From Escherichia phage T4: 64,000 nt of DNA. A model generated the notes under the pieces. The model ran no database searches, was not told the origin of the DNA, and was given only the letters and a program-made list of their open reading frames with translations. Both the position numbers and the translations under genes were made by a program. Location of the stretch: sequence record OL964745.1. The stretch is one strand, 5' to 3'. The stretch's first letter is position 1; each line of letters begins with the position of its first letter. Shown piece by piece: positions 1 through 62,666 of this stretch.

Positions 1-204
1 TTAATTCATATTACGCTTAATAACTTCAGCAACTTCTAGTAGTTCATCTTTAGTTGCGGTGTCGGATTGAATTTTATCTCTAATATCTTTAAAGCGGGTT
101 TTAAATTCTTCGGCTTCTCCCATATCGAAAAAGCGTTGAATGATTCTATATTCTCGATGAACTGCTTTATCAAAAAGTTCTAAATTTACTTTATATGATT
201 TCAT
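1..204 (-). CDS. rIIA.1: small early protein, rIIA.1-like (67 aa)
   Basis: Complete minus-strand ORF immediately downstream of gene 60; position matches T4 order. No functional motif recognised. Confidence 0.45.
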   Translation of the reverse strand: MKSYKVNLELFDKAVHREYRIIQRFFDMGEAEEFKTRFKDIRDKIQSDTATKDELLEVAEVIKRNMN

Positions 205-228
205 TTCAATATCCTCATTTGCCCAATT

Positions 229-259
229 AATTATACCACATCCTTGTGGTAAAGTAAAC
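229..259 (-). promoter_or_regulatory. sigma70-type T4 early promoter
   Basis: Minus strand reads GTTTAC (rc of 254-259), spacer, TGGTATAAT (rc of 230-238), upstream of the 1..204 ORF. Confidence 0.5.
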
Positions 260-791
260 TACTGGCTCATCCATTCTTTACGAAGGTCAGCATTATCTCC
301 CATGAGCATTTCAAAAAGCTCTTTCCAGTTCTCAGGAAGTTTAACAACATCATATACTGGGTTTTGAATCATCTCACGATATTCAGATTTTTCCAAAGAG
401 CCAAGTCCCTTAATATAACGGATGCTATGTTTAGGTAGAGCATCTTTGGCACTCTCATATTCAGCGACTGTATAAAACCATTCTTGTTTTTTACCGACCT
501 GAGCGATGATTACAGGAGTTTTGACAAAGCGAATTCGTCCTTGCTCAAACAATTCTGGCCAATTACTAAAAAATCCGAGCAGAGAAGGATAAATAGAACC
601 TAATCCAATAATCTCTTAATTATGAGGTATTTCTATAGATAGCCCGAAGGCTATCCATCGTGATCTGCGTCTGTCATAATAGCGACATTCGCATAGTTCA
701 TTGAAGAGGATTTAATAGAACGACGAACATTGTTCTGCAATTTATATTTTTTCATATCAACGCTAGAAGAATCAATTTTTACAAATTTCAT
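259..791 (-). CDS. 60: DNA topoisomerase II medium subunit gp60; two coding segments (654..791 and 259..603) joined by ribosomal bypass
   Basis: N-terminal 46 codons MKFVKIDSS...MTDADHDG end at GGA followed by UAG; coding resumes LGSIYPSLLGFFSNWPELFEQGRIRFVKTP...KGLGSLEKSEY. 46+114 = 160 codons. Confidence 0.92.
604..656 (-). promoter_or_regulatory. gene 60 translational bypass (hop) element
   Basis: Minus strand: take-off GGA (654-656), UAG (651-653), hairpin CCUUCGGG..., 47-nt gap, landing GGA (604-606), resume codon UUA (601-603). Confidence 0.88.
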
Positions 792-1590
792 TATACACCT
801 CATAGAACTTTTCATCAGGAATCCAACCGCGTTTAAATTCATTAAATGCTCGGCCGAATAATTTTGAATTCACAGTTATATTATTAACTGATTTCCATTT
901 AGCAACTCCCGTTCGTTTATAATGATCGGGGTCATATTTCGTGACGTACCATTCATATAAATTTGGTATTAATTTTACAGCCTCTGGATTTGTCGCTGAT
1001 TTATTATACCATGGTTTCGCTTTTTCAAGTTCAGCTGCTTTTGCAGTAGCAGCAACAGTATTTCCAATACCAACTAATTTTTCAGTTTTAATGCGTGGAT
1101 CATTAACATGAAGACGAAAAACTTCGCCCTTTTCATTTTTAAAGCATGTCATGCCTTTAATTCCAGGAAGCTTAACACCTTTATTAACACCGCACCATTC
1201 CTTTGGGTTAAATGATCCTTTAATTAATAAGGCGCATTTACCCGATTTAATACTTCTCATTAAAACTTTATCTTTCATAAAGTTTTTTGACCATTCAGAT
1301 ACTGCTCTTTGATGGTAAATTCTAGCAATTTCATATAATTTACTAGAACGTAAATATTTTTCAGTGTTTAACATTCTATTCATCGCATATGCCATTTCAC
1401 GATTACGATGAATTTTATATAGTAGAAAATGTGCTAAAAAGTGTTCACGAAAAGTCAGTTTCACCAAATTTTCTTTATCATCAGAACCTCCCATTGATCT
1501 TGGAAGGATATGATGAATTTCACCCTTAAATTTAGAAACGCGGGTTTTACCCCGCACTATTAAGTCATTATAGATTTTTTCGTAATTCAC
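772..1590 (-). CDS. mobA: HNH homing endonuclease, MobA-like, inserted between genes 39 and 60
   Basis: HNH motif EIHHILPRSMGGSDDKENLVKLTFREHFLAH; lies between the two topoisomerase genes. True start may be downstream of the first in-frame start. Confidence 0.7.
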   Translation of the reverse strand: MNYEKIYNDLIVRGKTRVSKFKGEIHHILPRSMGGSDDKENLVKLTFREHFLAHFLLYKIHRNREMAYAMNRMLNTEKYLRSSKLYEIARIYHQRAVSEWSKNFMKDKVLMRSIKSGKCALLIKGSFNPKEWCGVNKGVKLPGIKGMTCFKNEKGEVFRLHVNDPRIKTEKLVGIGNTVAATAKAAELEKAKPWYNKSATNPEAVKLIPNLYEWYVTKYDPDHYKRTGVAKWKSVNNITVNSKLFGRAFNEFKRGWIPDEKFYEVYNEICKN

Positions 1591-3121
1591 CTACTGTTAT
1601 CCATTTACCATTAATCTGTACTTCATCATTTTCATTTACGATAATTGTATCGCCATTTAGCTCGAAAGTAAACCACTCGCCATCTTCTTTTTCTTCAAAC
1701 GCTTTTTCACCGAGAACTAGACCAGTGATTGCGCAAATATCAAATAGTTCTTTGTTTTTAAGCATATCTGCATAAGACATACCCCAACTGTTGAGAACTT
1801 TACCACGCAATGGATAACCACCGTGAAGTTCTTTATCACGAACATCAATAAGATATCCGATAGCCGAATCACCCTCAGTCAAGAAAAGAGTAGTATCAGC
1901 ATCTTTACCGCAAAGATTCGCTTTGATATGTTTATGAACCTTAGCTTTAGAAGCCTTTTTAGCTGCTTTAGTTTCTGCTGCTTTTTCTGCCGCCAATTTA
2001 CGAGCCAAAGCAGCTTCAATAATCGGCATTAGAATTGCTTCATTATTTAGAATAGCACGTGAAATCTTTTTAGCATCAAGTTGAATATGACTACGAATTT
2101 CGCCAAATGGAGAAGTCAAACGCTCTTTAGTTTGAGAATCAAATCGCATGTTTTTCATATCACGAACAAACATAACGATAGTCAAACATTCTTTGACACG
2201 TGCTTTAGTCACATCAATTTTGAACTTACGTTTGATTTGTGGAATAAGGTCTTCACAAATATCATCCATAGCGCAGTCAATGTGATGGCCACCATTCTTA
2301 GTATGAATGTTATTGACGTATGTTAATTGACGAAAACCATCCGGTGAACGACCAACCGCAATAGAACAATTTTCTTGCTCTTGAACAATAGCATGTTCAT
2401 CATACTGCCGTGCATATTTCTTAAAATTGCCCTGAACCTTTTTACCATTAAAGGTAAATTGAATATCAGGATAAACTACAGCAAGTGTCTGGAGACGATC
2501 CAGTGTAATGTCAAGATAAACTTGGGACAGCTCATTAGTTTCAAATGACATAAAATCAGGAATGAAAGTAACACGAGTTCCTTTCCATTTTCCAGGAATA
2601 TCTTCCCATGATTTATTTTCCATGCCATTTGAACAACGAACTACAATATTATTTTGACCGTCGCCAGTTTCACCGACAAACATCACAGAAAAAATGTTTG
2701 TCAAACTAGAACCAACACCGTTCATACCGCCGGTGACGCGTTCTTTATCATCACCAAAGTTACCACCTGCTTTTGGAATAGTCCATGCGGCAACAGGACC
2801 AGGAATTTCTTCACCGGTAGGTGTTTTAACCATCGCTTGTGGAATACCGCGACCGTTATCTTCAACTGTTACTTGATTGTTTTTAATAGTAACATTAATT
2901 TTATTCGCGAATTTAAACTTAGTACGAATACCTTCATCTACTGAGTTATCGATAATTTCATCAATAAGCTTAACAAGACCAGGTACATACTGAACACTTT
3001 CCCATTTACCAAACATAAAGCGCTCATGCGTTTCATTAGCAGAAGAGCCAATGTACATGCCACTACGCTTTTTGATATGTTCAATATCGCTCAGAATTTT
3101 AATTTCATTCTTAATCATCAC
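1568..3121 (-). CDS. 39: DNA topoisomerase II large subunit gp39 (GyrB-like ATPase)
   Basis: 517-aa ORF with GHKL ATPase signatures (IIDNSVDEG, GRGIP, GxxGxG-like loop). Confidence 0.92.
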   Translation of the reverse strand: MMIKNEIKILSDIEHIKKRSGMYIGSSANETHERFMFGKWESVQYVPGLVKLIDEIIDNSVDEGIRTKFKFANKINVTIKNNQVTVEDNGRGIPQAMVKTPTGEEIPGPVAAWTIPKAGGNFGDDKERVTGGMNGVGSSLTNIFSVMFVGETGDGQNNIVVRCSNGMENKSWEDIPGKWKGTRVTFIPDFMSFETNELSQVYLDITLDRLQTLAVVYPDIQFTFNGKKVQGNFKKYARQYDEHAIVQEQENCSIAVGRSPDGFRQLTYVNNIHTKNGGHHIDCAMDDICEDLIPQIKRKFKIDVTKARVKECLTIVMFVRDMKNMRFDSQTKERLTSPFGEIRSHIQLDAKKISRAILNNEAILMPIIEAALARKLAAEKAAETKAAKKASKAKVHKHIKANLCGKDADTTLFLTEGDSAIGYLIDVRDKELHGGYPLRGKVLNSWGMSYADMLKNKELFDICAITGLVLGEKAFEEKEDGEWFTFELNGDTIIVNENDEVQINGKWITVGELRKNL

Positions 3122-3165
3122 TTATCCTCGTTTGGTTTCGGGAATATTATACTCCGGTAATCATA

Positions 3166-3191
3166 AAGCTAAAGGCCCGAAGGCCTTTTAT
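3166..3191 (-). terminator. UUCG-tetraloop hairpin
   Basis: Plus aaaggcccgaaggccttttattt; minus-strand RNA AAAGGCC-UUCG-GGCCUUU followed by a U-containing tract. Confidence 0.45.
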
Positions 3192-3446
3192 TTAAAACGA
3201 ATAGTTGAATCCTTAAAGAACAGCCCAGAACATACTGTTCCTTCTACTTTCTGCCCGGTAGGTCCAATAGCACGAAATCCAGTATGCTGGAAATCATTTT
3301 CAGAGCAACCGAACCAATTATATCCAGTGATTTCAATATTAGTAAAACCACTTGAAGACAAAACTTTGGTTGCATTATCAGCATCAGTACATCCTATTAA
3401 AGACACTGCTAATACTAATGCTGCAATAGAACGATTAATATTTCAT
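3188..3446 (-). pseudogene. small lipoprotein gene with frameshift between start codon and signal peptide
   Basis: ATG AAA TAT TAA at 3446 is out of frame with the downstream signal peptide and lipobox (..SIAALVLAVSLIGC TDAD..); restoring 2 nt (TATT to TATATT) gives one ORF. Confidence 0.4.
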
Positions 3447-12914: not shown

Positions 12915-13505
12915 TTATACATCTTCTTTTCTGAATAAGTAAATTAAATTCTTAAGAGCCGAACTTGTTACATCATATTTTCCTTTAAGCGCCTTTACAA
13001 CCGGGCCTGTTGCTGGTTTACCTAAAGAAACCCATAACTCGTGTATTTCGCTTTTAAGTGGTTCATGCCAATGCGGTGCTTTTCTTTGCGCCCTTGAAGT
13101 TCCTTCTGAAATCTTTTTATTTCCGCCATTCGAATAAAACTTTTTCATTACTTCAGATTGCCGAGCTTTTCTTTCTGCCCTATTTTGGGCTATACGTTGT
13201 GAATTCTTCATCCGAGTTTTTGTTTCAGGATTGTTTAATCTAAGTTTATGTTCTAATCGTTGTTGCTCAGTCCATTTTCTTCCTTCTCCACCCTGACCAC
13301 CAGGAGAAATATTAATGCAAGTATCTGGGTGTTTACGTTTTAATGCAGATTAGCTCACGTTCAACTTCATATGATTTTTCTCTAGAACCATGGCATTTTG
13401 ACCATCGTATTTTATAATTATCCATACTTACGATATATGTTCCATAGTATTTTACCTGAACCCGGATATTTATCATTATATGGATTTACAATAAATGATT
13501 CATGT
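12915..13505 (-). pseudogene. segF: segF-like homing endonuclease remnant in at least three frames
   Basis: Fragments ..YPGSGKILWNIYRKYG*, MDNYKIRWSKCHGSREKSYEVERELICIKT*, and a 144-codon C-terminal frame with ISPGGQGGEGRKWTEQQRLEHK; resemble SegA/SegB. No intact GIY-YIG N-terminus. Confidence 0.45.
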
Positions 13506-13514
13506 TTCCCAGCG

Positions 13515-13540
13515 TACCAAAAGACGCCTTTCGGCGTCCT
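13515..13540 (-). terminator. hairpin terminator after gene 56
   Basis: Minus RNA GACGCC-GAAA-GGCGUC followed by UUUUGG. Confidence 0.55.
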
Positions 13541-13572
13541 AACTTTTACTATATGTTCTATAAAATTTTTGT

Positions 13573-14123: not shown

Positions 14124-14920
<797 letters not shown>

Positions 14921-15220
14921 ATTCTCTCATTTATTGCAGCAAAAATGAATTATACAATTCTTCATCATATGTATTTGATAGTAATACTAACACGTTTTGC
15001 GATAAATATTAATTTAAAGGAGGATATGGTACAAAAATTAATGGCACTTGTTAATGCCATAAAAGGTAATAAGAAACGTATAGCTTTTACTTTCTGCTAT
15101 GGTAGGAATTTTACTCTGGAACTTTATTTTATCACCTGTTGCAATTGCACATGGTGTTAATATTCCAGTAGTTACTCTTGATACATTCGTAGATTTAGCA
15201 TTTGCTTTAGTTGGGTTAAT

Positions 15221-35158: not shown

Positions 35159-35940
35159 CTATAAAACGCTACGAATAGGCCCAAACATATCCATAAGCAA
35201 TTTTGCTTTTTCCAGATTGCACTTTTTAATATTAGACATGCATCCTTTAACGGATACAGCTGCGTCTTTAATTCTAGGAAATACTCGTAATAATTTTCCA
35301 GTAGTATCATATTGAAATACTGGCACATTTCTTTTCTGAGTTATCCCACGTAGATTTAGACATTTTTTGTTTAGTTGCATTAGACATCCTAGAGGGCTTT
35401 CCTATGTTATCAGAATAATATTTCCATTGAAATCCTCCAGCGGTTTTCCTTTTACCATCTACACATTGTTTAATTGAAGTTGAACAGCTATGACATATCT
35501 TCTGCAGCATCTGTAATACATCTATATTTGCGAATAAAATTTCCATTTAAATCATATTGATAAATTGGTTTTCCAGCATTTCGTCTAGCGTTAGACATGT
35601 ATTTATTATCATCTTTCCAGAACTCTTTCATGCTTTCCGATATTGAAGAAGATACAGCTGTTTTAATCCATCCATACATTATTATTTAGTCTTGTTCCGT
35701 CAGAACTATAACATCATACGAATAGCTAAAGCCAATTTAGGAAGTCTATAAATTTTAAATAATAAATGCGCGGTAAAATGTTCTTCTGGTGTCAAAAGAA
35801 CTAAATTAGTTTTATCATCTGTACCACCCATACATCTAGGAATTATATGATGTGTTTCAGTATAGTATGTCAAAAGACTTTTATCATTGCCTCTGTTTAG
35901 TCCTTTTTCGATCAGTAAATTATATGTTTAAATAATTCAT
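35159..35940 (-). pseudogene. mobB: HNH homing endonuclease remnant with tandem DNA-binding repeats (mobB-like)
   Basis: ATG at 35940 (MNYLNI*), then HNH motif TETHHIIPRCMGGTDDKTNLVLLTPEEHFTAHLL in another frame; three track ORFs carry repeats PIYQYDLNGNFIRKYRCITDAAEDM and PVFQYDTTGKLLRVFPRIKDAAV. Confidence 0.5.
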
Positions 35941-35967
35941 TTTAGTTTATTTTACCAAAAAATTTAT

Positions 35968-35992
35968 AAAGCAATAGGAGCCGAAGCTCCTA
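35968..35992 (-). terminator. UUCG hairpin
   Basis: Minus RNA GGAGC-UUCG-GCUCC. Confidence 0.4.
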
Positions 35993-43601: not shown

Positions 43602-44208
43602 ATTATTCCTTAATTCCTAGTACTTGTTTAAAAGTCTCGTCGTAATCAAGACTTTGGCCCGTTTGTTCTTTATGCTTGTATATAATCACTTACTTCTGAT
43701 AGCATATTTTTATATGAACGAGTTAAAGCAGATTTAAGCACGCTGTATCTATCAGGAAATTTACCGTGTTCATTATAATAAGCTTGCTAATTCACGGACT
43801 GCCTTTTCAGCAGTCTCCATATTCTTTACGCTTTGTCATTTTCTTCTCGGTCAAATCGGTGTTTACAATGGCGACATTTAACGAAGATTATTAGTCTGCC
43901 AATGGACCAATTGCACCTGTTCAGTTCCACATTCAGGGCAATTAGGAACGTTTTTAGAAGCCCTTTCGCGACGTTCAACCATGACCATTACAGAATCCCA
44001 ATTAACAGGAGGGCTAATCATCACAACCATAAATCTTTCCACGCATTTCCAGATCGTCTTCTTCACCAGCCATAATAATTTTAATTAGACTAGAATTACT
44101 TGAAGCTGCAATGTCTTCTAATAGACGCTTTTTCATTTCAATACCTCAATAGCAGTTCTTCTCACTTGGTTAATGATTTATACTCCGAGCCATCCTTGGC
44201 TTTAAATT

Positions 44209-44499: not shown

Positions 44500-44900
44500 T
44501 TCACGAAGGCTAATTACGAGTTTATATCCTTCCCAACCGCATATTCTTAAAAGGATATGTATGAATTTCTACTGTTTCCATACAAAGTAATGCGGTCTCT
44601 AATTGACGAGTTAGTGCTAGCAATTGAGAAAAATTTATTAATATTCTTTTGGTTAGTTTCTGGTGTAAAAAATCCATAATTCACAAATAGATACTTTATT
44701 TTTATCAAGTTCATATTCTTTTATGATAATCATATCAGAAGCCAAAGGATGAATTTGACGATAATCGCCAACATAATTTAGAAGCTGATTTTAGAATTTG
44801 CTTCTTGAAAAGTCTGAAATTACTAATCCAACGACGAGTAAAAATATTCTCAGGGTCTTCTTTATTATTGAGATGATAAGAATTAACATCACCGAACCAA

Positions 44901-45155
44901 TTATCCTACTACATCTTTAGTTCGTTTAATTTCTTTCCCAAAATTACCAAGAATATCCCGATTAACCAAATATGAAAGAAGACGAGACTCTTTAAAGGTT
45001 TTCTTGATAACATCTTTATCTACACGGCTAGAAATTTTACGAATTTCATGAATAAATTTAGTAGAAGAAACAATACTTGCATCAACACTATTGAGCCACT
45101 GATTGATAATAGAAAGAACGCTATTTTGGCCAAACATCGGTATAGCTATCATCAA
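44901..45155 (-). CDS. hypothetical protein (84 aa)
   Basis: ORF track. Confidence 0.35.
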   Translation of the reverse strand: MMIAIPMFGQNSVLSIINQWLNSVDASIVSSTKFIHEIRKISSRVDKDVIKKTFKESRLLSYLVNRDILGNFGKEIKRTKDVVG

Positions 45156-45221
45156 TAACGCTATTGAATGATTTGATATTCGTTACGAGTCATATTAATC
45201 TCCTCAGTAGAAAGTAAGAAC

Positions 45222-61039: not shown

Positions 61040-61310
61040 GCAAGTGTTTGTACGAAACGCCGGGATTCGAACCCGGTTATTAAGTAGTTGACGCTACTCA
61101 ATATTTTTAAAAGGCCATATCTCAACCATATCCGAACGTTCCGTCAAAAACGCTACTCGGCTTACGGCAAAGATATTTCCTCGAATCGATAATTTGGTGC
61201 GCCGTTTCTGCTGTGATGTAAGAGGGCATCAATAAACGCAAAGATTATTAACGCAATTCCTTACTCAGGGAACATCAGTCCGACGACTTACCGGTAGCGA
61301 CCCGGTTTCT
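61040..61310 (-). ncRNA. tRNA-like small stable RNAs (T4 RNA C / RNA D region)
   Basis: Downstream of tRNA-Arg: segments with T-arm CCGGG-UUCGAAU-CCCGG and ...ACGGCGCACCA 3' end; boundaries approximate. Confidence 0.45.
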
Positions 61311-61314
61311 CATT

Positions 61315-61389
61315 TGGTATCCCGCCCTGGGATCGAACCAGGACCGCAAACTTAGAAGGATCGTATGCTATCCATTACACCAGCGGGAC
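61315..61389 (-). tRNA. tRNA-Arg (anticodon UCU)
   Basis: rc gives GTCCCGCTGGTGTAATGGATAGCATACGATCCTTCTAAGTTTGCGGTCCTGGTTCGATCCCAGGGCGGGATACCA; loop CUUCUAA. Confidence 0.8.
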
Positions 61390-61711
61390 GTAATTTAAAA
61401 TTTCATTTTTCGACCTTTAAACCATCCTTCTGGAATTGGGTCAGTTTTCTTAATACGTTTAGAAACTTTTTCATCTAATGAATGAATCCACATCATACCG
61501 AATTGGGAATTCTTTTCACCTTTCTGGTGATTATTTTTGGCGTGAGATTCTTTCATTTTATTAATAGTTTCAGGAGTATGATGCTTATTTAGATCTGCTA
61601 TTATTTAAAAATTTTTCCCTGTATTCAGGAGTTGACCACAAACGTTTAAATACATTTGAACCAATTTTACGATATTTTTCTTGAAGTAAAATATCATTTT
61701 CAAAACGTGAC

Positions 61712-62052
61712 TTAAACGATAGCTCCTTTTAAGCTAGCATCTTTCTTCTGGTTTAGCATTCCAGGAATATTTACATGATCCCATCCACCTTCACCGCCAA
61801 GTTTTAAATTATACACATCTGGTCTATTTAAAAACTCTTCTGTGACAATATTTTTCTCGGCTTCAAGCATAGATTCTTTATCGTCAAAATACTCTAATAT
61901 TTCTTTAGAAAAATTTTCTATACCATATTTATCTTGGGCTCTTTTTAATAATTTACCAGAACCCATATCCATCATCTAAATTTTCGGTAGAATGCACACC
62001 AATATAAATTTTATTATTAATTTTATTTGTTATTTTATAAGTGTAATAGAAC
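61712..62052 (-). pseudogene. segB: GIY-YIG homing endonuclease SegB-like, frameshifted, inside the tRNA cluster
   Basis: MFYYTYKITNKINNKIYIGVHSTENLDDGY then out of frame into MGSGKLLKRAQDKYG...YNLKLGGEGG (track ORF 61712..61975); TATATG reads TATG at about 61964-61967. Confidence 0.7.
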
Positions 62053-62095
62053 ATAAATATCTCCTATTTCTAAGAGTATTTATGTTCTCAAAATA

Positions 62096-62169
62096 TGACC
62101 CAGACCAGATTTGAACTGGTAACCTTTCCCTTATGAGGGGACTGCTGCTAACCATTGAGCTACAGGGCC
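62096..62169 (-). tRNA. tRNA-Ile (anticodon CAU)
   Basis: Cloverleaf with loop CUCAUAA; T-arm ACCAG-UUCAAAU-CUGGU. Confidence 0.75.
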
Positions 62170-62170
62170 T

Positions 62171-62246
62171 TGGTGCTGATTGACGGAATCGAACCGCCGA
62201 CATCCTCATTACAAGTGAGGTGCTCTACCTACTGAGCTAAATCAGC
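62171..62246 (-). tRNA. tRNA-Thr (anticodon UGU)
   Basis: GCTGATTTAGCTCAGTAGGTAGAGCACCTCACTTGTAATGAGG...GGTTCGATTCC...AATCAGCACCA. Confidence 0.85.
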
Positions 62247-62253
62247 AAAATTA

Positions 62254-62340
62254 CGGAGGCGATAGGATTTGAACCTATGAGTCGCCGGAGCGACTGCCGG
62301 TTTTCAAGACCGGTGCATTAAACCACTCTGCCACGCCTCC
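62254..62340 (-). tRNA. tRNA-Ser (anticodon UGA)
   Basis: GGAGGCGTGGCAGAGTGG...CCGGTCTTGAAAACCGG... long variable arm ...GGTTCAAATCC...CGCCTCCG. Confidence 0.85.
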
Positions 62341-62342
62341 AG

Positions 62343-62416
62343 TCTCCATACAAGGATTTGAACCTTGGACCTCCTGATCCCAAATCAGGCGCTCTACCAA
62401 ACTGAGCTACACGGAG
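62343..62416 (-). tRNA. tRNA-Pro (anticodon UGG)
   Basis: Anticodon arm CCTGA-TTTGGGA-TCAGG; T-loop GGTTCAAATCC. Confidence 0.8.
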
Positions 62417-62426
62417 TAAATTAAAT

Positions 62427-62500
<74 letters not shown>

Positions 62501-62505
62501 AAATT

Positions 62506-62592
62506 TGGTGCGAGAAGTGGGACTCGAACCCACAAGGAAATCATTCCGCAGCATTTTAAGTGCTGTGCCTTTACCAATTTGACCATTCTCGC
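62506..62592 (-). tRNA. tRNA-Leu (anticodon UAA)
   Basis: GCGAGAATGGTCAAATTGGTAAAGGCACAGCACTTAAAATGCTG... long variable arm ...GGTTCGAGTCC...CTCGCACCA. Confidence 0.85.
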
Positions 62593-62593
62593 G

Positions 62594-62666
62594 CTGGGAA
62601 TAAAGGACTCGAACCTTTGCATCTAGCAGTCAAAGTGCTATGCCTTACCAACTTGGCTAATTCCCA
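62594..62666 (-). tRNA. tRNA-Gln (anticodon UUG)
   Basis: TGGGAATTAGCCAAGTTGGTAAGGCATAGCACTTTGACTGCTA...GGTTCGAGTCC...ATTCCCAG. Confidence 0.85.

Follow-up and report, generated by a model that had tools for sequence, protein, structure and literature searches.

The open reading frame at positions 772..1590 of the window (the whole 64,000-nucleotide stretch of Escherichia phage T4 DNA analysed here, record OL964745.1) is almost certainly mobA of T4, which encodes an HNH homing endonuclease of the free-standing kind. A mobile cassette of ~1.1 kb carries it, lodged in the part of the topoisomerase II large-subunit gene that codes for TOPRIM. The mobA cassette is a textbook case of an essential gene split by a free-standing homing endonuclease that comes with its own repair kit, which consists of protein tails, a translation start and a 50-nt bypass gap reported to double as self-immunity. 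Since the cassette and all of these features are already known from T4 itself, the finding is not new; the re-analysis is of use in confirming that mobA is intact in T4, contrary to AF158101/NC_000866 and a 2022 preprint, and in fixing where the element begins and ends in the window.

Identity and intactness of the mobA frame

Bases 1-3200 of the window are 100% identical to T4T (HM137666), RB55, RB59 and several T4 records, and the annotation of HM137666 puts mobA, genes 39 and 60 and the bypass at positions that match the window. In the ORF listing mobA, encoding an HNH homing (nicking) endonuclease of 272 aa, is an 819-nt frame on the minus strand with a GTG start at 1588-1590 and a TGA stop at 772-774. 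Its T4T counterpart is ADJ39722.1, annotated as 'homing endonuclease', and its product matches PHROG 655, also named 'homing endonuclease', with E=2e-57. By a rough estimate, an open frame as long as this would arise by chance in DNA of ~35% GC with a probability of ~1e-9; the short plus-strand ORFs within 772-1590 (43-56 aa) were set aside as antisense noise.

The preliminary description had placed a 272-aa ORF at 772-1590, between gene 39 and gene 60 and overlapping both, and these coordinates agree exactly with the ORF listing. It had also called the ORF mobA-like; the assignment as an HNH endonuclease stood, while the qualifier did not, since the ORF is T4 mobA itself (ADJ39722.1 in HM137666). 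The T4 gene described by Bonocora, Zeng, Abel & Shub (PNAS 2011) is the same, with the same location between 39 and 60, the 23-nt overlap, the GTG start and the bypass cassette. ADJ39722.1 and the window do not differ in this region, and the older AF158101/NC_000866 alone depart from them.

Compared with the window, AF158101 has 11 extra bases, scattered over 9 sites, and 5 substitutions, all in 1068-1474, and because of the 11 extra bases AF158101.6/NC_000866 annotate a 'MobA homing endonuclease pseudogene' and a separate ORF 60.1. This annotation would fit a T4 mobA that is a decayed pseudogene, in which case the cassette would be no more than a dead footprint and no active enzyme would be made from the 272-aa frame; in keeping with this, mobA has been termed 'apparently defective' (Uzan & Miller 2010), T4 mobA is listed as pseudogenised in a preprint (Manning & Atkins 2022), and the gene has a GTG start without a strong, well-spaced ribosome-binding site. 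We nevertheless consider decay very unlikely, given that mobA in the window is one uninterrupted 272-codon frame within a 3.2-kb stretch that is 100% identical in T4T, RB55, RB59 and independently sequenced T4 records, that the AF158101 differences are scattered and confined to a single interval, that the catalytic residues of MobA are conserved (see below), and that nicking of the target by MobA and its inheritance at high frequency have been reported (Edgell 2010). The comparison suggests that the extra bases of AF158101 are old sequencing errors and not decay, and the earlier impression that mobA is intact is in agreement with T4T and the other resequenced T4 records.

The preliminary description was also right in taking mobB and segB not to be intact here. 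The DNA of the window comes from a derivative of T4 that has lost many short segments, with the deletions concentrated above all in mobB, nrdC.4, dam, segF and segB; mobA is untouched.

The divided topoisomerase gene and the borders of the cassette

The ORFs that flank mobA each encode one half of a topoisomerase II subunit of the GyrB type. Gene 39 (1568..3118, minus strand) lies upstream of mobA in another frame, with an overlap of 23 nt; the listed ORF runs over 1568-3121, with the annotated ATG at 3118 and a TAA stop at 1568-1570. By Pfam, PDB and T4T comparisons its 516-aa product is the N-terminal part of the large subunit (GHKL ATPase, transducer and the start of TOPRIM). Gene 60 lies downstream in the third frame, with its ATG at 789-791 and an overlap of 20 nt. 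Pfam finds HATPase_c and DNA_gyraseB in gp39 and TOPRIM_C in gp60, and both proteins match the solved T4 topoisomerase II gp39-gp60 chain 8yo3_C, of which gp39 makes up residues 1-516.

Genes 39 and 60 had been said to be fused in related phages, and indeed T2, T6 and RB14 each have a single ORF of 1818 nt in place of the two. Comparison with these fused genes, which the preliminary description had proposed as a way to define the insertion, places the borders at ~595-1700 and the length at 1097-1106 nt. Identity to T2/T6/RB14 (96-97%) breaks off after gene-39 nt 1418, which corresponds to window position 1701, and identity of 98-99% starts again past 595-603, where T4 has TTA GGT TCT and the parental sequence TTA/CTA GGA AGC. 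The whole cassette present in T4 and missing from the fused alleles therefore occupies 595..1700 (minus strand); its length is 1097 nt if counted up to and including the bypass gap and 1106 nt with 9 more divergent bases, in agreement with the size of 1097-1106 nt in Manning & Atkins 2022, where the borders against fused alleles are already mapped in print. The proposal that an insertion split the topoisomerase gene is thus upheld by sharp borders, while its extent is that of the cassette and not of the ORF at 772-1590.

What the cassette contributes to each half can be read from the same alignments. The upstream half gains an in-frame tail of 43 aa (FEEKEDGEWFTFELNGDTIIVNENDEVQINGKWITVGELRKNL; 1571..1700, minus strand) and a stop codon; this C-terminal extension of gp39 is without counterpart in gp39 of T2/T6/RB14, the alignment breaking past ...LVLGEKA (residue 473), and the match to T6 gp39 (8ylu_C) likewise covers residues 1-473 and ends there. 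The downstream half receives a Shine-Dalgarno sequence, an ATG and 46 codons. The putative Shine-Dalgarno of gene 60, GAGGTG (796..801, minus strand), was read from the sequence; it falls within the 3'-terminal part of mobA, and 4 nt separate it from the ATG of gene 60. The first ORF of gene 60 (654..791, minus strand; translation MKFVKIDSSSVDMKKYKLQNNVRRSIKSSSMNYANVAIMTDADHDG, then stop) is wholly cassette-encoded and comprises 46 codons to the take-off codon GGA (Gly46), of which 30 specify unique residues and 16 stand in for the deleted TOPRIM segment; the 46-aa chain of this ORF is PDB 5np6_C. The resumed frame, ORF2 (259..603, minus strand), encodes the remainder of TOPRIM and the C-terminal domain, with a Pfam TOPRIM_C match, and shares 98-99% identity with the 3' end of fused gene 39, its first 9 nt (595-603) being cassette-derived.

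Between the two ORFs of gene 60 lies the bypass gap of 50 nt (UAG...GGA; 604..653, minus strand; TAGCCTTCGGGCTATCTATAGAAATACCTCATAATTAAGAGATTATTGGA), also annotated in T4T, which closes the cassette and which ribosomes must bypass. Around it the sequence reads GAT GGA TAG CCTTCGGGCTATC ... ATTATT GGA TTA, with a GGA take-off codon and a matching GGA landing codon, and taking out 604-653 restores a continuous gp60 reading frame. A 10-bp stem-loop capped by UUCG is predicted at the take-off site (fold z=-2.97).

In principle the split arrangement could be ancestral, T2, T6 and RB14 having fused their genes secondarily by deleting the DNA between, in which case the ORF would mark no insertion. 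The topoisomerase cryo-EM paper allows for 'gene-fusion or gene-separation', and secondary re-fusion is described in one Aeromonas clade (Manning & Atkins 2022). This order of events is nevertheless extremely improbable. The cassette is a presence/absence polymorphism at a single site, with flanks 96-99% identical and sharp borders at 1700/1701 and 595-604, and only 41 of the 532 matching phage records span it. The fused genes bear no trace of the C- or N-terminal extension sequences. Furthermore, the cassette substitutes its own diverged copy for 51 nt of the host gene: this segment, homR (655..700, minus strand; BLAST and alignment against RB14, T6 and T2), is 76-78% identical to gene-39 nt 1427-1472 of T2/T6/RB14, a stretch which lies unbroken in the fused gene; the Ser codon at the border is TCT in T4 and AGC in the parental genes. 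Finally, distant Acinetobacter and Aeromonas phages have this same cassette at the same site, and their close relatives are without it. Insertion into a fused gene accounts for the split.

An intron- or intein-encoded endonuclease was also considered and rejected, as no splicing element came up in Rfam and Pfam searches, and gp39 has its own stop and gp60 its own ribosome-binding site and ATG. Window positions 1-3300 gave no intron and no Rfam family, the bypass element included, at E<=1 beyond two matches at chance level, and gp39, MobA and gp60 gave no Hint/intein match in Pfam.

The HNH core and the C-terminal region of MobA

The HNH catalytic core of MobA, assigned by Pfam, conservation and AF2 modelling, spans residues 23-54 (GEIHHILPRSMGGSDDKENLVKLTFREHFLAH; H26/H27, N41, H50, H54), encoded at 1429..1524 (minus strand). 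Given that the curated cut-off of the Pfam HNH family (PF01844) is 21.4 bits, the full-length protein, at 20.1 bits, falls under it, while the N-terminal 110 aa alone are borderline over it (21.9 bits, E=2e-4); the match covers aa 24-43. The expectation in the preliminary description that profile searches should return an HNH hit was accordingly borne out for the N-terminal 110 aa and not for the full-length protein. The assignment itself is upheld at the level of the family, by the PHROG 655 match and by 98 relatives of MobA, among which PF01844 is found in 63, HNH_5 in 36 and HNH_4 in 13. Across these 98 sequences G35, N41, H50 and H54 of the motif EIHHILPRSMGGSDDKENLVKLTFREH are invariant, and E24, H26 and H27 are conserved in at least 90%.

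The AF2 model of the MobA N-terminus (pLDDT 92.5) has a predicted beta-beta-alpha core, with strands at 23-27 and 42-46 and a helix at 47-61 bearing the motif residues. In a Foldseek search of the PDB with this model, HNH proteins dominate the top matches (Cas8-HNH with probabilities of 0.82-0.85, IscB, McrA, Gme HNH and colicin E9), none of them significant (best E=0.34), and I-HmuI was not recovered. The full-length AF2 model had no significant PDB match in Foldseek; TrwC relaxase and FERM domains appeared with TM 0.11-0.15 and are probably noise, the model being elongated and multi-domain. The BFVD matches comprise T4 MobB, MobC and many HNH homing endonucleases, with E down to 1e-22. In phmmer against PDB sequences the short HNH motif was the only match, to the group II intron maturase 6me0_C (E=0.009), with whose HNH motif that of MobA aligns residue for residue. 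An NCBIfam scan of MobA returned an IscB match at motif level only, far under cut-off, and a match of aa 60-112 to T4 baseplate gp6 domain III (19.8 bits, cut-off 27) was rejected as spurious helical similarity. The earlier suggestion that MobA be assayed for cleavage of the fused allele has an answer in the literature, as nicking of this allele is already published, as related by Manning & Atkins 2022 from Bonocora 2011.

The C-terminal region, residues 108-272 (775..1269, minus strand), contains no known domain, with no Pfam match at E<=10 and no match among PDB sequences, and no solved structure resembles it significantly in fold. It is common to only ~10 full-length MobA relatives, hundreds of others sharing just the N-terminal module. 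By analogy it is presumed to bind the DNA target, and Edgell 2010 describes it as 'presumably the DNA-binding domain'. We would tentatively entertain, as a somewhat doubtful extension, that the C-terminal ~165 residues form a structurally undescribed DNA-recognition module, one that would recognise the conserved sequence coding for TOPRIM and detect the 50-nt gap, which lies ~20 bp from the nick site. Were this so, a recognition module of a new type would be a detail of a known system and not a new system.

Homing, expression and related elements

In the mechanism drawn from the literature, MobA would nick one strand of a cassette-free allele during mixed infection, in the region that matches homR, and recombinational repair off the T4 allele would copy the cassette into that allele. 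The 50-nt gap, ~20 bp from the nick site, would interrupt the recognition site and so spare T4 from cutting itself. For T4 x T2, the accounts of Bonocora 2011 given in Manning & Atkins 2022, Edgell 2010 and Rodnina 2019 state that the element-free allele is cut, that the T4 allele is immune and that the element is over-inherited. As relayed by Manning & Atkins 2022 from the same source, the published nick site in T2 falls in the region equivalent to homR, and both they and Rodnina 2019, where they cite it, treat cassette and bypass as one mobile element whose gap blocks self-nicking.

mobA would lack a promoter, and its 23-nt overlap with gene 39 and its GTG start make it probable that it is translated weakly, coupled to gene 39 termination; Edgell 2010 had remarked on this overlap (23 bp) and on the use of GUG as start. 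In a promoter and terminator scan, promoter-like sites were fewer than in shuffled controls, and one such site upstream of mobA (1672-1644) was discarded as evidence of a promoter.

That mobA overlaps both topoisomerase genes and contains the ribosome-binding site of gene 60 could also mean that its main present role is a service to the phage, such as tuning the translation of gene 60 or 39 or assisting assembly of the split topoisomerase, and not mobility; further functions of bypassing have been speculated upon (Manning & Atkins 2022). We hold this to be highly improbable, as several lineages without the endonuclease retain the split gene, the tails and the bypass, the conserved residues of MobA are the catalytic HNH ones, and the split T4 topoisomerase is active when reconstituted from gp39, gp60 and gp52 alone, its inserted tails protruding outside the TOPRIM domain (topoisomerase cryo-EM paper).

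The other free-standing T4 enzymes MobE, MobB, MobC and MobD have in common with MobA an N-terminal HNH module of ~100 aa (40-60% identity) and the lack of an own promoter, and MobE, like MobA, nicks one strand (Edgell 2010). They are mostly intergenic and none is tied to translational bypass, unlike MobA, and the C-termini of relatives are often NUMOD3, NUMOD1 or I-HmuI-like modules, none of which is detectable in MobA. A similar gene organization is seen in phage Aeh1 of Aeromonas, where mobE, as mobA does, interrupts its host gene, nrdA, and supplies tails to the termini (Manning & Atkins 2022; Edgell 2010). I-HmuI and I-HmuII of Bacillus phages are, like MobA, HNH nicking enzymes with an N-terminal catalytic and a C-terminal DNA-binding module (Edgell 2010), but they are encoded in self-splicing group I introns, whereas mobA is without intron or intein and truly splits a protein. 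The Pfam I-HmuI_NUMOD-like model matches 7 of the 98 MobA relatives, and neither phmmer against PDB sequences nor Foldseek against the PDB gave a significant match of MobA to I-HmuI.

The full-length homologues of MobA (30-56% identity) all lie between two topoisomerase halves, so that the element recurs at a homologous site. The Straboviridae-type elements (Manning & Atkins 2022, clades 1-6 and metagenomic) have the same architecture as T4, in the order tailed topoisomerase ORF, MobA of 269-290 aa, ORF of 45-46 codons, gap and TOPRIM_C ORF, and differ from T4 in sequence, with MobA identity down to 30-56%, and in the length of the gap. The analysis found this architecture in Acinetobacter fHyAci03, whose MobA is 50% identical to that of T4, and in Aeromonas 60AhydR15PP, with 36%. 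The context of T4 mobA is also shared by the metagenomic contigs L009 and L008, with MobA identities of 56% and 30%; as read from their sequences, L009 apparently has an in-frame gap of 51 nt and L008 one of just ~14 nt.

Layout and borders of the insertion

Over window positions 1-3200, database comparison gave 100% identity to T4T (HM137666, 2200-5399), RB55, RB59 and several T4 genomes that had been sequenced independently, and 99.4% identity to the older reference (AF158101/NC_000866). Converted into window coordinates, the T4T annotations place rIIA.1 at 1-204, gene 60 at 259-791 (joined across a 50-nt 'translational bypass region' at 604-653), mobA at 772-1590 and gene 39 at 1568-3118, all on the minus strand. 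In the ORF listing, the 272-aa frame of the preliminary description is a GTG-initiated minus-strand ORF spanning exactly 772-1590, and its placement between and overlapping genes 39 and 60 was likewise borne out. Read from the sequence, the gene 39 stop TAA (1568-1570) gives a 23-nt overlap with mobA and the gene 60 ATG (789-791) a 20-nt overlap, each of the three genes occupying a separate reading frame. The ORF is T4 mobA itself, a gene with an existing annotation and published functional work; Edgell et al. (2010) likewise described its GUG start and 23-bp overlap.

Judged from sequence, the ORFs on either side of mobA together encode one GyrB-like subunit, each supplying half of it: the gene 39 product matches Pfam HATPase_c and DNA_gyraseB, the gene 60 product matches TOPRIM_C, both align to the solved gp39-gp60 chain of T4 topoisomerase II (8yo3_C), and T6 gp39 (8ylu_C) aligns to gp39 residues 1-473 and gp60 residues 27-160. 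That the two are one gene in related phages, as had been proposed, is seen in T2, T6 and RB14, each of which has a single gene of 1818 nt (605 aa) where T4 has 39, mobA and 60.

The borders were mapped by aligning these three genes with the window in coding orientation. On the left, 96-97% identity runs from the gene 39 ATG to nucleotide 1418 (...GGT GAA AAA GCG, window 1701) and then ends suddenly; on the right, 98-99% identity restarts directly past the bypass gap. Differences remain clustered in the 9 nt that follow the landing codon (595-603; T4 TTA GGT TCT, parental TTA/CTA GGA AGC), among them a Ser codon change beyond the reach of single synonymous substitutions. These breaks in identity thus delimit an element of 604-1700 (1097 nt) or 595-1700 (1106 nt), in agreement with the 1097-1106 nt and 'additional 9 nt in clade 1' reported by Manning & Atkins. 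The idea that a mobile endonuclease split the topoisomerase gene is supported, while the extent first assigned to the insertion, 772-1590, was too narrow. Boundary mapping and cleavage of the fused allele, the two checks suggested at that stage, have both been published before, and the finding is already known.

The cassette is spanned by 41 of the 532 phage records that match window 1-3200, and tblastn found full-length MobA in 72 records. MobA also lies between the topoisomerase II halves in Acinetobacter phage fHyAci03 (50% identity) and Aeromonas phage 60AhydR15PP (36%), and two metagenomic homologues, P0004 (56%) and P0014 (30%), share the T4 order of GyrB-like N-terminal ORF, MobA, 45-46-codon ORF and TOPRIM_C ORF. 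A split that was ancestral, with secondary fusion in T2 and T6, has a low probability: few of the matching records span the cassette, the fused genes show no trace of the terminal extensions, the cassette brings its own diverged copy of a segment that is uninterrupted in them, and it recurs at one site in lineages as far apart as Acinetobacter and Aeromonas phages, whose close relatives lack it.

Cassette contents and mobility

Besides mobA, the cassette supplies, all on the minus strand, a 43-aa in-frame gp39 tail with its stop codon (1568-1700), a Shine-Dalgarno sequence for gene 60 (GAGGTG, 796-801), the gene 60 ATG with 46 codons (654-791) and the 50-nt bypass gap (604-653). The last 16 of the 46 codons (MNYANVAIMTDADHDG) are a 76-78% identical substitute for 51 nt of parental sequence displaced by the insertion. 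Once the 50-nt gap is taken out, the gp60 frame is restored across GGA|TTA, and the take-off codon lies inside a predicted 10-bp stem capped by UUCG. An intron- or intein-encoded endonuclease was excluded, there being no Rfam family in window 1-3300 even at E<=1, no Hint domain in gp39, MobA or gp60, and separate stop and start signals for the two polypeptides.

Two metagenomic contigs with distant MobA cassettes have variant gaps, which we read manually from the sequence. In a Logan contig (ERR11525658, 4788-5324), the CCUUCGGG stem-loop is shared with T4 and the gap is apparently 51 nt, in frame, with a GGG take-off and a GGA landing codon. In an ENA contig (ERZ27284606, 4870-5372; MobA 30% identity), a hop of only ~14 nt (GAT TAG GT TAG CTT GAC | GGC GTT GGC TCC) seems enough to restore ...MTDADVD-GVGSIYP.

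According to Edgell 2010, MobA introduces a nick into a single strand of its target, and the progeny of mixed infections inherit mobA at high frequency. As far as the accounts of Bonocora 2011 in Manning & Atkins and in Rodnina et al. go, mobA and the bypass form one mobile cassette transferable to T2, the nick site lies within the region equivalent to homR (the cassette copy of the replaced parental segment), and self-nicking is blocked by the 50-nt gap ~20 bases away, not by homR polymorphisms. The topoisomerase is active though split, the added tails projecting outside the TOPRIM domain (topoisomerase cryo-EM paper). A mobA that mainly serves its host instead of itself has a low probability: several lineages no longer have the endonuclease but retain the split gene, its tails and the bypass, the conserved residues are the catalytic HNH ones, and gp39, gp60 and gp52 suffice to reconstitute active topoisomerase.

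Low-level mobA translation probably arises by coupling to gene 39 termination, as the overlap and Edgell 2010 suggest. A promoter scan of the mobA region found nothing above chance. One sigma-70-like site (TTTACT, 17-nt spacer, TACAAT; 1644-1672, minus strand) falls within the gp39 tail-coding region, ~55 nt ahead of the mobA GTG; since shuffled controls contained more sites of this kind than the region did, it is no evidence of a promoter.

MobA as an intact HNH protein

Membership of MobA in the HNH group is established at family level. Profile searches did return the predicted HNH match: full-length MobA scored 20.1 bits against PF01844 (aa 24-43, E=7e-4), slightly below the 21.4-bit cut-off, and the N-terminal 110 aa alone scored 21.9 bits. 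Among 98 aligned relatives, 63 matched PF01844, 36 HNH_5 and 13 HNH_4, and PHROG 655 ('homing endonuclease') matched residues 1-265 with E=2e-57. In the alignment of the 98 sequences, G35, N41, H50 and H54 never vary, and E24, H26 and H27 are at least 90% conserved; in the AlphaFold model built for the N-terminal domain (pLDDT 92.5), the conserved residues fall on two strands, beta 23-27 and beta 42-46, and on helix 47-61. Foldseek of that model against the PDB gave nothing significant (best E=0.34), the top matches being mostly HNH domains (Cas8-HNH, IscB, McrA, Gme HNH and colicin E9 among them). Among predicted viral structures, matches to the full model comprised many HNH homing endonucleases, T4 MobB and MobC among them, as well as P39487 (the old 'ORF 60.1'), whose sequence is simply the last 126 aa of MobA.

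The C-terminal 165 residues, matched neither in Pfam nor among PDB sequences, are common to only ~10 full-length relatives, and the N-terminal module occurs in hundreds of proteins. A weak likeness of residues 60-112 (window 1255-1413) to domain III at the C-terminus of T4 baseplate gp6 fell short of the PF21871 cut-off (19.8 bits, with 27 required; PDB 9f4a_AX, E=0.18) and was rejected; the helical segments most likely resemble each other by chance.

In favour of T4 mobA being a dead pseudogene are the AF158101 annotation ('mobA pseudogene' and ORF 60.1) and two further papers, one a 2022 preprint, that call the gene defective. Relative to the window, AF158101.6 carries 5 substitutions and, spread over 9 separate sites, 11 additional bases, many of which are G; all lie within 1068-1474, inside mobA, and they account for its 'MobA pseudogene' and 'ORF 60.1' annotations. 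T4T, RB55, RB59 and several resequenced T4 genomes equal the window exactly over the 3.2-kb stretch containing mobA. We infer from these sequence comparisons that the pseudogene call is due to errors in the old sequence, and the preprint's statement on a pseudogenised laboratory T4 mobA probably derives from AF158101.6. A dead gene thus has a low probability; the preliminary description was correct that mobA appears intact, its frame being uninterrupted and an exact match to the resequenced records.

Probable laboratory deletions elsewhere in the window

The mobA region is untouched, but downstream of ~3.4 kb (3400-62600) the window differs from wild-type T4. Dozens of 1-4 nt deletions relative to T4T, nearly all of 2-4 nt and almost all of A/T bases, include many clustered in a few genes, with the rest scattered. 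There are 12 in mobB (35217-35973) and 3 in segF (13348-13549), with further clusters in genes such as dam/dam.1 (14146-15090), nrdC.1/.2 (43684-44014) and nrdC.4 (44540-45175). Larger deletions of ~0.46, ~2.0 and ~0.9 kb lie at ~5480, 40057 and 44154.

These deletions explain why mobB and segB had been described as broken, and so they are relative to T4T, segB (~61300-62600) being frameshifted. For both stretches the closest database record is MZ375356 (99.5-99.8%), 'Mutant Escherichia phage T4 clone T4_583L', which was made by genome reduction with CRISPR/Cas9 (CiPGr; PMC9825161). The window probably comes from a laboratory derivative related to T4_583L, in which mobB, segB and segF were probably broken by laboratory work rather than by natural decay.
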